Source: Bacilli bacterium (GTDB taxonomy: Bacteria > Bacillota_I > Bacilli_A > RF39 > UBA660). Taken from it: a stretch of 42,512 nt of DNA. The notes beneath the pieces were generated by a model, which was given only the letters and a program-made list of their open reading frames with translations, was not told where the DNA came from and did no database searches. The number at the start of each line of letters is the position of its first letter. The first letter of the stretch is position 1. The DNA lies in the NCBI GenBank assembly GCA_045650425.1, contig JAZRRD010000019.1, forward strand, positions 1 through 42,512. Direction: 5' to 3'. A program made the translations under genes and the position numbers. Of this stretch, positions 9,481 through 41,699 are shown piece by piece.

Positions 9481-9696
9481 CTATCTATAATAAGGATTAA
9501 AACCATAATTATAATAATATCCTCCACCATAAGGCGCATATGGAGGATAAATTGGTCTTGGGGCTACATTATATATTGGTCTCGGACGAGTAAGTCCTAT
9601 TGCAGCCCCTCCGGTAACAGCCCCTACTAAAAACGGAAATAAAAATTGTCTATCTTCATACTTATTGTATACATACGGTTCATAATTTCTATACAT
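9481..9696 (-). CDS. Small Tyr/Pro-rich spore-coat-like protein (YmaG-like)
   Basis: FPFLVGAVTGGAAIG core plus Y/P-rich tail; GAAAGGA RBS favours ATG 9696; mother-cell-type promoter upstream. Confidence 0.6.
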   Translation of the reverse strand: MYRNYEPYVYNKYEDRQFLFPFLVGAVTGGAAIGLTRPRPIYNVAPRPIYPPYAPYGGGYYYNYGFNPYYR

Positions 9697-9718
9697 ATAT
9701 GTCATTCCTTTCTGTTAT

Positions 9719-9816: not shown

Positions 9817-11043
9817 TTAAATGTATTTTACTACATAATAATTCTTTTTGCCTTTCTTAACCAACAAAACTTTTCCATCAATTGCTAATTCTTTAGTTAT
9901 TGTAAGTTCTAAATCTTGATATTTTTGATTATTAATACTTATTGCATTTCCTAAAACCATTTCTCTCGCTTCTCTTTTACTAGAACAAATCTTATTATTG
10001 ACTAATAAATCAATGATATTCGTATCTTCAATAATTTCACTATTTGGTACATCTTGAAAATTATTTAAAATTTCATCTGCACTTAACTCTTTTATTTTTT
10101 CTGTAAATAAAGCTTCACTAATTTTTAAAGCATTTTCATATTCTTCTTTTCCATGTATAAATGTTATTACTTCACGCGCTAATGCTTTGTGAGCTTCTCT
10201 CTTTTCTGGAGCTTCTAAATGAAGTTTTTCTAATTCTTCTATTTCTTCTTTACTTAAAAGTGTTAACATTTTTAAATATTTAATAACCATGCTATCTTCA
10301 GAATTTATAAAAAATTGATACATTTGATAAGGTGTAGTTTTACTTTTATCAAGCCAAACATTTCCTGTACCTGATTTACCAAACTTAGTACCATCAGCCT
10401 TAGTTATCAATGGCATTGTAAATGCAAACACTTCATCACCAGTAGTTTTTCTAATAAGCTCTATACCAGTTGTAATATTTCCCCATTGATCACTTCCTGC
10501 CACCTGCATATCTACACCCATATTTTCATGTAAATATTTAAAATCTAATCCCTGAATTAACATATATGAAAATTCTGCATAAGAGATACCAGTTTCCATT
10601 TGCCTTCTTACTAAATCTTTATTTAACATATAATTAACATTAATATATTTACCATAATCTCTTAAAAAATCTATTACAGTTAAATCTTTTACCCAATCAA
10701 AATTATTAACCACTTTATAAGGAAATAATTTTTGAACTTGCGTTTTTAACCCTTCAAAATTTCTAGCAATTATTTCTTTATCAGCTAAATCTCTTTCACC
10801 AGTTCCTCTCGGATCTCCAATTAAACCTGTTGCTCCCCCAACTAAAATAATTGGATTATGTCCTGCATCAGCAAGTCTTTTAGTAATTAGAAAAGAACTA
10901 TAATGACCAATATGTAAACTATCAGCCGTAGGATCTGTTCCAATATAAAAAGTCATTCCTCCATTATTTAATTTTTCTTCTAATTCTGGACTAGATATAT
11001 CTTGGATTAGTCCTCTCCATTTTAATTCTTCAAATAATTTCAT
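9817..11043 (-). CDS. tyrS: Tyrosine--tRNA ligase
   Basis: DPTADSLHIGH, GSDQWGN, KFGKS, C-terminal S4 domain. Confidence 0.97.
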   Translation of the reverse strand: MKLFEELKWRGLIQDISSPELEEKLNNGGMTFYIGTDPTADSLHIGHYSSFLITKRLADAGHNPIILVGGATGLIGDPRGTGERDLADKEIIARNFEGLKTQVQKLFPYKVVNNFDWVKDLTVIDFLRDYGKYINVNYMLNKDLVRRQMETGISYAEFSYMLIQGLDFKYLHENMGVDMQVAGSDQWGNITTGIELIRKTTGDEVFAFTMPLITKADGTKFGKSGTGNVWLDKSKTTPYQMYQFFINSEDSMVIKYLKMLTLLSKEEIEELEKLHLEAPEKREAHKALAREVITFIHGKEEYENALKISEALFTEKIKELSADEILNNFQDVPNSEIIEDTNIIDLLVNNKICSSKREAREMVLGNAISINNQKYQDLELTITKELAIDGKVLLVKKGKKNYYVVKYI

Positions 11044-11056
11044 TTTTCTTCACTCC

Positions 11057-11686
11057 TTATAATATTTCTTTTAATTCACAAACGTCTCTTATTGTTAAAT
11101 ATTCTCTATGTTTCTTGTTATTTACATAAATTGGTTCAATCCCCAATTTAGATGGTTCAATTACATCAAAATTTAAATTATCGCCTATCATCATACATTC
11201 CGTGGGCTTATATTTTCCACAAGCTTTTAAATATGATTTCTTACTAGGTTTCATAACTTCATCACCACAATGTATTTCTTTAAAATATTTCTTTATTCCA
11301 TATTTTTCTAATCTTTTTTCTTGTGATATTTTAAAAGAATTACTTAATATTACTAATTCATATTTTTCAGATAAATATTTCAAAGTATCACAAAGTTCCA
11401 AAGAAGCAACACCCTCAACACATTCTTCTAACCATTTAAAGAATATCTTGATTTTGTCATCATCCATTTTAATCTTAGTAAGCTCAGTTATACATTCTTT
11501 AAATTCATCCATATTCCAACAATCATGTGTTTTTTCATAATATTCAATAGCCATTAAAGTTTTATAAAATTTTATCCAACTTAATTTAATATTATTTTGT
11601 TTTAATAATTTTTTCAACTTTATATAATATGATTTTTTCCATGGCATTAAAGTATCATCGACATCAAAAATCAACCGTTTTTTCAT
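11057..11686 (-). CDS. HAD-IA family hydrolase
   Basis: FDVDDTL, ILSN, KP, MIGDNLNFDV motifs. Confidence 0.9.
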   Translation of the reverse strand: MKKRLIFDVDDTLMPWKKSYYIKLKKLLKQNNIKLSWIKFYKTLMAIEYYEKTHDCWNMDEFKECITELTKIKMDDDKIKIFFKWLEECVEGVASLELCDTLKYLSEKYELVILSNSFKISQEKRLEKYGIKKYFKEIHCGDEVMKPSKKSYLKACGKYKPTECMMIGDNLNFDVIEPSKLGIEPIYVNNKKHREYLTIRDVCELKEIL

Positions 11687-11704: not shown

Positions 11705-11838
11705 AAAAAAAATTCACAAACTAAGGACGAATTATTAATCCGCGGTACCACCTTAATTTATGAATTTATTCATACACTTAATGCTGTAACGTAAGCAAAC
11801 GTTTTAACTCAGGAGTCGTAAATTCCGTCTTCGTTAAA
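11705..11838 (-). promoter_or_regulatory. Tyr T-box riboswitch, minimal architecture
   Basis: AAGGTGGTACCGCG T-box (11754-11741) pairing with CGTCCTT; Stem III tatgaa/ttcata; IIA/B pseudoknot; 36-nt Stem I with TAC specifier at 11820-11818; U8 tract; tyrS downstream. Confidence 0.85.
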
Positions 11839-11848
11839 TATGTTATGT

Positions 11849-11877
11849 ATTATAATTTAAAATTTATTTTTCTTCAA
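11849..11877 (-). promoter_or_regulatory. SigmaA promoter of the T-box/HAD/tyrS transcript
   Basis: TTGAAG-17-TATAAT, about 10 nt upstream of Stem I. Confidence 0.7.
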
Positions 11878-33163: not shown

Positions 33164-33513
33164 AATAATATCTCATAAGCCATGTTCCGTCCTTCATATG
33201 AAGGGACAAATATTTATCTACCATTGCTGGTCCCCTACTTTGTTCAAATTCCATTGTAGAAGCTCCCCTACCAAAATTTGGGTTTCTCGCTCGTGGGGTT
33301 TACCACGTTCCACTATCAAAGTTTCCCTTGATACTCGTCTCTTTGGCACTTTTATATCTAATTTAACCAGTTAAGGTTATTTCAAAGCCGTTAGTTATAA
33401 ACTACCTTAGGTTATTTTTTCCCTAAGCACGAACACTACAATCATCGCAGATTGTGCGAGCATGGACTTTCCTCTACATAATAAATTTATGCAGCATTTG
33501 TCTCAATATTATT
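33164..33513 (-). ncRNA. rnpB: RNase P RNA, type B
   Basis: GAGGAAAGTCCATGCTCGC, GAAAGTGCCA-like AAAAGTGCCA, GGTAAACCCC and GAACATGGCTTAT; P1 aataatat/atattatt; follows gpsB as in Bacilli. Ends are approximate. Confidence 0.93.
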
Positions 33514-41622: not shown

Positions 41623-41699
41623 GGCGATGTAGCTCAGCTGGCTAGAGCACCCGGTTCATACCCGGTAGGTCGTGAGTTCGAATCTCTCCGTCGCTACCA
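41623..41699 (+). tRNA. tRNA-Met(CAU), elongator type
   Basis: GGCGATG/CGTCGCT acceptor stem, TT-CAT-AC loop, GTTCGAATC, encoded CCA; resembles Bacillus elongator tRNA-Met. Confidence 0.93.

Follow-up and report, generated by a model that had tools for sequence, protein, structure and literature searches.

We propose that the UAC (Tyr) T-box heading a HAD_2 hydrolase and tyrS operon, on the minus strand of a 42,512-nt stretch of DNA (the whole stretch is called the window), uses an expression platform in which the terminator zips from the A1 helix of the antiterminator and displaces Stem III, and in which uncharged tRNA blocks this event by locking the Stem III/purine-string discriminator. 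We put the probability of this reading at roughly 65%. Computation showed the 17-bp helix on which the reading is built, its conservation and covariation among relatives, the missing canonical alternative and a low predicted refolding barrier. All structures reported below are thermodynamic predictions.

The leader spans 11842-11705 on the minus strand, to which all coordinates below refer unless marked otherwise, and lies between a YtxH-like gene and the HAD-hydrolase/tyrS operon. A promoter-like site at 11849..11877, recognised by consensus match only (TTGAAG, 17-nt spacer, TATAAT; 10 of 12 consensus matches), places the predicted transcript start at about 11842, and a TATAAT-like box is also kept upstream in aligned relatives. 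The first gene of the operon (11057..11686) encodes a 209-aa HAD-family hydrolase (HAD_2, E 4.4e-15) with a GGAG at 11698-11695 ahead of its ATG, and is followed by tyrS (9817..11043), which encodes a tyrosyl-tRNA synthetase of 408 aa (tRNA-synt_1b, E 3.8e-70). Since the U tract of the leader lies upstream of the Shine-Dalgarno sequence, we read the element as transcriptional. The window has a GC content of 27.3%, and its open reading frames are intact under table 11 with no need for genetic code 4, in which TGA would be read as Trp. Just 3' of tyrS is a candidate gene, an open reading frame of 74 aa (9481-9705, minus strand) with a hydrophobic central segment, in which 16 of the 74 residues are Tyr. 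The window also contains a class B RNase P RNA (33171-33509, minus strand, 277.8 bits) and a tRNA-Met gene with a CAU anticodon (41623-41699, plus strand), the sole tRNA gene present; no tRNA-Tyr gene was found in the window. These features and the intact reading frames would fit a standard-code organism of low-GC Bacillota type.

A match to the Rfam T-box family (RF00230) covered 11840-11720 on the minus strand with a score of 66.9 bits (E 2.4e-14), and no RF00230 match in the window reached the gathering threshold of 93 bits, which we attribute to the deletion of 76 Stem I positions and all of Stem II. Stem I is ultrashort (11804..11837), with a 5-bp base helix (11837-11833/11808-11804), a GA-motif internal loop and an upper 3-bp helix (11826-11824/11814-11812) closed by a 9-nt terminal loop; it has neither the length nor the distal tRNA-elbow platform, made of interdigitated T-loops, of a long Stem I. 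The specifier UAC (11820-11818) is located inside the terminal loop and matches the downstream tyrS gene, and TAC was invariant in all seven leaders with such a Stem I. Next comes a Stem IIA/B-like element (11782..11802) with an F-box-like CGTTA, its IIA hairpin aligned by Rfam and Stem II itself absent, being deleted in the Rfam T-box alignment. A putative TGCT/AGCA pseudoknot, picked out by eye, may form in the IIA/B-like element.

The remaining parts of the sensing domain are laid out in the usual order. A purine string AAGTG (11775..11779) fits the RRRxG motif ahead of Stem III (11759..11774), which consists of TATGAA (11774-11769), the loop TAAA and TTCATA (11764-11759) and forms in the antiterminator-state folds. 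The linker AATT (11755..11758) joins Stem III to A1 and contains the conserved 3' AA of the purine string, so that the segment AAGTG-Stem III-AA extends over 11779-11757. The antiterminator core (11723..11754), as placed by the Rfam T-box alignment, is kept within the terminator and comprises A1 (AAGG at 11754-11751 with CCTT at 11726-11723), the 7-nt bulge TGGTACC of the UGGN-ACC type (11750-11744) and A2 (GCGGATT at 11743-11737 with AATTCGT at 11733-11727), with the characteristic AAGG-TGGTACC-GCG at 11754-11741. We conclude that the element belongs functionally with the T-box leaders, from which it departs in terminator topology, the pre-U strand pairing with the Stem III region in place of the canonical strand exchange, and, in the window, in the lack of a long Stem I. 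The reduced form of this T-box, with no distal platform, no Stem II and a sub-threshold score, leaves its tRNA affinity, and even its function, open to doubt.

An earlier note on this DNA had described a 17-nt pairing with two G-U pairs that runs into a U8 tract, and its coordinates proved exact and equal to the predicted minimum free energy structure. The 5' strand AAATTCATAAATTAAGG (11751..11767), which runs from the Stem III loop and 3' strand through the linker into the 5' strand of A1, pairs with CCTTAGTTTGTGAATTT (11710..11726), composed of the A1 3' strand and the invading strand AGTTTGTGAATTT that follows it (11722-11710), in 17 contiguous pairs of which 15 are Watson-Crick and 2 are G-U. 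The U8 tract of the predicted intrinsic terminator occupies 11705..11712, and its first 3 U can pair with AAA at 11767-11765. The helix encloses the TGGTACC bulge and A2 (11743-11727) and takes up the Stem III 3' strand and loop. Together with the nested A2 it was the minimum free energy structure of a 73-nt local stretch in ViennaRNA, at -21.5 kcal/mol versus -9.5 +/- 2.7 kcal/mol for shuffled sequences (z -4.48; 1 of 200 shuffles at least as stable). The extended helix was also the minimum free energy and centroid structure of the 146-nt leader, which as a whole was only mildly unusual (z -1.85; 10 of 200 shuffles at least as stable). As expected for an intrinsic terminator, the predicted stable hairpin directly abuts the U tract. 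A generic terminator scan, which called for at least 3 G-C pairs and a loop of 3-8 nt, gave 0 sites at the leader, because the stem has 2 G-C pairs and a 24-nt structured "loop" and thus falls outside the scan rule.

Related leaders were collected by a TyrS protein scan of species-representative genomes, which yielded 80 loci at 57-87% identity, mostly from metagenome-assembled genomes (MAGs) of uncultured low-GC Bacilli, "Tenericutes", Erysipelotrichaceae and Coprobacillaceae. A T-box motif was present upstream of tyrS in 71 of the 80 loci (63 with the strict pattern and 8 with a relaxed one) and was not found in L004, L005, L008, L013, L018, L020, L049, L052 and L053, two of which (L005 and L013) had <200 nt of upstream sequence. 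Outside the tyrosine leaders, no further T-boxes for other amino acids were found in the window or the fetched loci, and the extra motif matches looked spurious.

The 72 leaders (71 loci and the window) were classed by folding the segment that starts 33 nt ahead of the bulge and ends at the U tract, and noting the partner of the last 6 nt before this tract, the position of which was set by hand for L036, L061, L068, L069, L071, L075, L076, L077 and L078. The pre-U strand paired with the Stem III region in 27 of the 72 leaders (26 loci and the window; hereafter class A) and with the antiterminator 3' half, as in canonical T-boxes, in 40 (class B). Two canonical-like leaders (L057 and L076), in which it paired with the A2 5' strand, bring the canonical total with class B to 42. 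The other three (L046, L060 and L073) are of a third design that lacks Stem III, the pre-U strand pairing with the A1 5' strand and the UGGNACC bulge; in these leaders a G+C-rich pre-U strand sequesters the tRNA-binding bulge, about 55-60 nt upstream of tyrS.

In all 27 class A leaders the helix leads directly into a run of 4 or more U (median 7), and class A loci were slightly more AT-rich than the others (GC 26.9% vs 30.7%). An ultrashort Stem I without Stem II was found in 7 of the 27 (the window, L001, L055, L062, L067, L069 and L070), and the consensus fold of these seven contained 8 pairs, 4 of them with compensatory changes; in the other 20 class A leaders Stem I was long, as judged by eye. 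Thirteen class A loci have the T-box about 690-770 nt upstream of tyrS; in L011, L012, L036, L037 and L040 the distance is about 1350-1460 nt, so that one or two genes appear to be commonly co-regulated with tyrS. The RF00230 gathering threshold was reached by 1 of 10 class A loci tested versus 2 of 2 class B loci, the class A loci below it being L002, L011, L036, L055, L062, L064, L067, L069 and L080. That the window and 9 of these 10 class A loci fall short of it would help explain how the class could have gone unnoticed.

Covariation in orthologous leaders had been put forward as a check in the earlier note, and the extended pairing turned out to be kept, with compensatory changes, in the 26 related loci. 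For this analysis the 27 class A leaders were placed in an unfitted MAFFT alignment and examined with the terminator-form consensus, in which covariation links the downstream strand to the Stem III loop, its 3' strand and the AA linker. In the terminator form, 87.2% of 627 cells were paired, the unpaired 12.8% being bulges, mismatches and MAFFT misalignment, and both sides had changed in 14 of 25 pairs, amounting to 65 cells. The covariation score was 0.325 versus 0.190 for shuffles, and 0 of 500 shuffles were as high on all five measures, statistics that are inflated by kinship among the leaders, including the near-duplicates L002/L003, L062/L070, L064/L074, L045/L050 and L011/L012. With the 3' partner shifted by 1-3 columns as a control, 41-57% of cells were paired and 4-27 showed double changes; since the consensus was taken from minimum free energy folds of the same sequences, it is favoured over these slid controls on percent paired.

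The most telling positions are those at which the two structures make different demands. Columns 22-24, located in the Stem III loop and hence free of the Stem III constraint, alternate between AU, UA, GC and CG with their downstream partners, an alternation that is also visible sequence by sequence at positions p-14 to p-17. In the linker, p-7 and p-8 are always A, with a U partner in 14 and 19 of 23 leaders, respectively, and G7 and G9 of the purine-string region were invariant in the 27-leader MAFFT alignment. Across the same 27 leaders A2 was 100% paired with double changes in 5 of 6 pairs, A1 was invariant or compensated, and Stem III was paired in 94% of cells with 22 double-change cells, a covariation score that 0 of 500 shuffles reached. 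As Stem III covaries and the terminator helix does too, both of these mutually exclusive helices are under selection. Two mutually exclusive, covarying helices are the classical signature of a riboswitch expression platform.

To quantify partner specificity, we calculated the energy of the duplex that the 20 nt ahead of A1 form with the strand that comes after A1. The mean over 23 leaders was -9.6 kcal/mol for the own duplex versus -4.9 +/- 2.4 kcal/mol for cross-species combinations. For 18 non-redundant leaders the observed mean was -9.73 kcal/mol and the permuted mean -5.33 +/- 0.51 kcal/mol (best -7.56), with 0 of 20000 permutations reaching the observed value. The 45 non-A leaders, used as a negative control, gave -2.5 +/- 2.4 kcal/mol versus -9.8 +/- 1.5 kcal/mol for class A (Mann-Whitney p 1.5e-11), their sole strong outlier being L073, which is of the third design. 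Chance complementarity in AU-rich sequence is thus ruled out by the swaps and permutations, the class B control and the slid columns. Taken with the occurrence of the topology in 27 of the 72 leaders and the covariation of both helices, this own-partner specificity strongly supports the proposal of the earlier note that the terminator arises by downward extension of the antiterminator, at the cost of Stem III.

We also examined the fold that a canonical switch would use. Under this alternative, termination would depend on the AAUUCGU/GUGAAUU hairpin or on some other pairing of the A1/A2 3' strands, the 17-bp helix being an AU-rich by-product. Such a topology would fit the textbook model (PMC7583486), and the leader in the window does contain a 9-bp G-U-rich alternative at -3.9 kcal/mol. 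However, that alternative makes no contact with the U tract, and the 7-bp AATTCGT/GTGAATT hairpin, which had already been dismissed as too weak to be the terminator, evaluated to +1.5 kcal/mol compared to -20.3 kcal/mol for the extended hairpin and was not conserved. The weak hairpins even differ between the window and its closest relative, L001. When only the sequence 3' of the bulge was allowed to fold, the class A mean was -3.6 kcal/mol and that of the other 45 leaders -13.5 kcal/mol; most class A leaders formed A2 alone under this restriction, with the pre-U strand unpaired, and class A thus has almost no usable canonical hairpin. As the extension moreover covaries, we consider a canonical switch extremely improbable. 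The energy difference between the terminator and antiterminator states was similar in class A (-11.2 kcal/mol) and the others (-12.1 kcal/mol), which indicates that the extension provides the driving force for which other leaders depend on the canonical hairpin.

The direct-path barrier from the antiterminator to the terminator was predicted to be 0.9 kcal/mol for the window, with means of 2.4 kcal/mol for class A and 5.4 kcal/mol for class B. A predicted series of folds at increasing transcript length in the window, corresponding to the co-transcriptional folding that the earlier note had suggested examining, had the toehold pair first and Stem III give way later. From +29 to +34 the four nucleotides after CCUU paired with the AAUU linker with Stem III still standing; from +35 Stem III was displaced base by base, and the U tract was reached at +41. 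In this model termination is a zipper, nucleated by A1 and with a toehold that contains the conserved AA.

The sequence of events under the preferred reading would be as follows. The antiterminator, consisting of A1, the UGGUACC bulge and A2, would stay folded in the terminator state, and the 13 nt past the A1 3' strand would zip downward, pairing first with the AAUU linker as a toehold. The invading strand would then displace the Stem III 5' strand and pair with the Stem III loop, and the product, a 17-bp uninterrupted stem against U8, would stop transcription. Uncharged tRNA-Tyr would probably lock Stem III and the AA toehold and so block the zipper; with toehold and Stem III unavailable while RNA polymerase crosses the U tract, readthrough would result. 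With charged tRNA or none, Stem III would be undocked and invaded almost barrier-free, and transcription would stop. Both the dependence on tRNA and the actual termination at 11712-11705 are inferred.

The A1 and A2 helices and the bulge are still formed in the terminator, so the two states do not exclude each other where the tRNA 3' end binds; what makes them exclusive is solely the requirement for Stem III reported in the literature. In PMC7583486, Stem III and its 5'-RRRxG...AA-3' purine string are described as indispensable in T-boxes, and the antiterminator alone, without Stem III, as not binding tRNA appreciably. With a mimic of charged tRNA, NCCA was still paired to the bulge as the linker undocked and Stem III moved off, according to PMC12647780. 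Because Stem III is needed for binding and undocks with the charged mimic, uncharged tRNA would be expected to block the zipper.

It is also conceivable that the extension forms in both states and that uncharged tRNA prevents termination in some other way, for instance by stacking on the bulge and distorting the long hairpin, or melting part of it, from inside. The bulge is indeed exposed in the terminator form, and NCCA of a charged tRNA mimic can still pair with it (PMC12647780). Yet the 13 bp beside the U tract are far from the bulge and would stay intact, Stem III covaries and is hence used, and the lack of appreciable tRNA binding by an antiterminator without Stem III (PMC7583486) speaks against the bulge acting alone. 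This makes tRNA action through the bulge quite improbable.

A different objection is that the extended hairpin terminates without any control through Stem III, as a constitutive attenuator or a T-box relic, or with a protein, RNase III or Rho making the decision. The T-box is heavily reduced, with its ultrashort Stem I, no Stem II and a score below gathering; the bulge and A1/A2 are still formed in the terminator state; and a 17-bp duplex could be a substrate for RNase III, which has been reported to cleave one T-box (PMC7913692). On the other hand, conservation down to about 60% TyrS identity extends to the UAC specifier, UGGUACC, the RRRxG...AA purines and a Stem III that covaries, which argues for selection on tRNA sensing. 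The same terminator occurs in class A leaders with a full-length Stem I, and all 27 have a U tract after the helix. We therefore regard a terminator free of Stem III control as unlikely.

The distribution of the classes was examined on a FastTree phylogeny of 78 TyrS proteins, unrooted and with SH-like support only, from which L059 (class A), L060 and L075 were absent since no TyrS open reading frame was picked for them. In this tree 24 of 26 class A rows sit in one half, whose 39 rows also include 7 of class B and 8 that lack a T-box, and every row of the Erysipelotrichaceae, Coprobacillaceae and Anaeroplasmataceae belongs to class B. The TyrS tree requires no fewer than 4 switches between the A and B designs. 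This distribution suggests that the class A design is old, is found across TyrS divergence down to about 60% identity and switches back and forth with the canonical one. Several loci, among them L012, L033, L064, L065, L066, L074 and L079, are labelled Actinomycetes, Muribaculaceae, Ignavibacteriales or Treponema; their TyrS proteins and T-box leaders nest among those of low-GC Bacilli, a placement suggestive of MAG contigs that were mislabelled or mis-binned.

A broader interpretation, which we offer tentatively and at somewhat under even odds, is that very low-GC gut Bacilli, a lineage that includes several MAGs labelled Tenericutes, Mycoplasma or Acholeplasma, have rewired the T-box such that the antiterminator never unfolds and the sole regulated event is the docking of Stem III and the purine string, which gates a near-barrierless zipper. 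In its most reduced form, that of the window, a specifier hairpin, a IIA/B element and a discriminator would suffice. If so, the formation of A1/A2 is not the decision step of T-box regulation, and the window would hold a natural minimal transcriptional T-box of about 135 nt. Thirty years of teaching have presented the T-box as a mutual exclusion of antiterminator and terminator, in which the A1/A2 3' halves exchange partners, with Stem III as a bystander or an aid to stacking. A natural class A would give independent evolutionary support to a view that has lately emerged from structures, in which Stem III and the purine string are the true latch that senses aminoacylation, and would offer a simple natural system for asking if Stem III docking alone decides termination. 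It would also illustrate a route by which an AU-rich genome can obtain a strong terminator with a low refolding barrier.

There are consequences for annotation as well, as most of these sub-threshold T-boxes would be missed by standard procedures, and searches for terminators only in sequence downstream of the antiterminator would mis-draw these leaders. In the TBDB database terminators were predicted by RNALfold and the transcriptional sequences came from Rfam and similar sources (PMC7778990), and typical terminator and antiterminator stems were reported for all of four glycyl T-boxes of pathogenic bacteria (PMC11404447). Full-text literature searches, whose reach excluded key comparative T-box surveys, returned no account of Stem III being part of a terminator.

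Among canonical transcriptional T-boxes the tyrS and glyQS leaders of B. subtilis are studied examples. With such leaders the element shares a specifier matching the aminoacyl-tRNA synthetase, the UGGN-ACC bulge between A1 and A2, Stem III with RRRxG...AA, the F-box/IIA-B element, an intrinsic terminator with a U tract and a terminator state that is about 11-12 kcal/mol more stable. It differs in that the leader in the window lacks the distal platform of Stem I and all of Stem II, and in the topology of the switch. In canonical leaders the terminator takes its 5' strand from the 3' strands of A1/A2, with Stem III standing in both states, and in published descriptions the terminator 5' strand is drawn from A1/A2 or the terminator lies >20 nt off Stem III (PMC7583486, PMC10907184, PMC5570125). 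In class A, by contrast, A1/A2 persist in both states and the terminator 5' strand consists of the Stem III loop, its 3' strand and the linker. The "different switching logic" claimed in the earlier note therefore holds insofar as the contested helix is Stem III and not A1/A2; the logic itself remains a ligand-stabilised competition between mutually exclusive helices.

The translational ileS T-box of M. tuberculosis shares with the window a short Stem I without the elbow-binding platform. Its antisequestrator is pre-formed, and discrimination depends on the docking of Stem III and the linker and not on NCCA pairing, as described in PMC10907184 and PMC12647780; this docking is the step that a class A terminator would exploit. 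The two differ in that the ileS element is translational, its sequestrator re-pairs the antisequestrator and Stem II is kept, whereas the element in the window is read as transcriptional and has no Stem II. Lineage-specific remodelling of the terminator and antiterminator is likewise found in the staphylococcal glyS leader, where stem Sa is inserted within these structures and the topology of strand exchange is canonical (PMC9177973, PMC4574755 and PMC11404447). The mechanism proposed for class A also resembles that of ON riboswitches of the pbuE type, in which the ligand stabilises a helix of the aptamer and toehold invasion otherwise completes the terminator, a hairpin element being able to nucleate it (PMC10907184). 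The differences are that in class A the ligand would be a tRNA, that the invaded helix, Stem III, is peripheral in the sensing domain, and that the site that pairs with the ligand is left folded.
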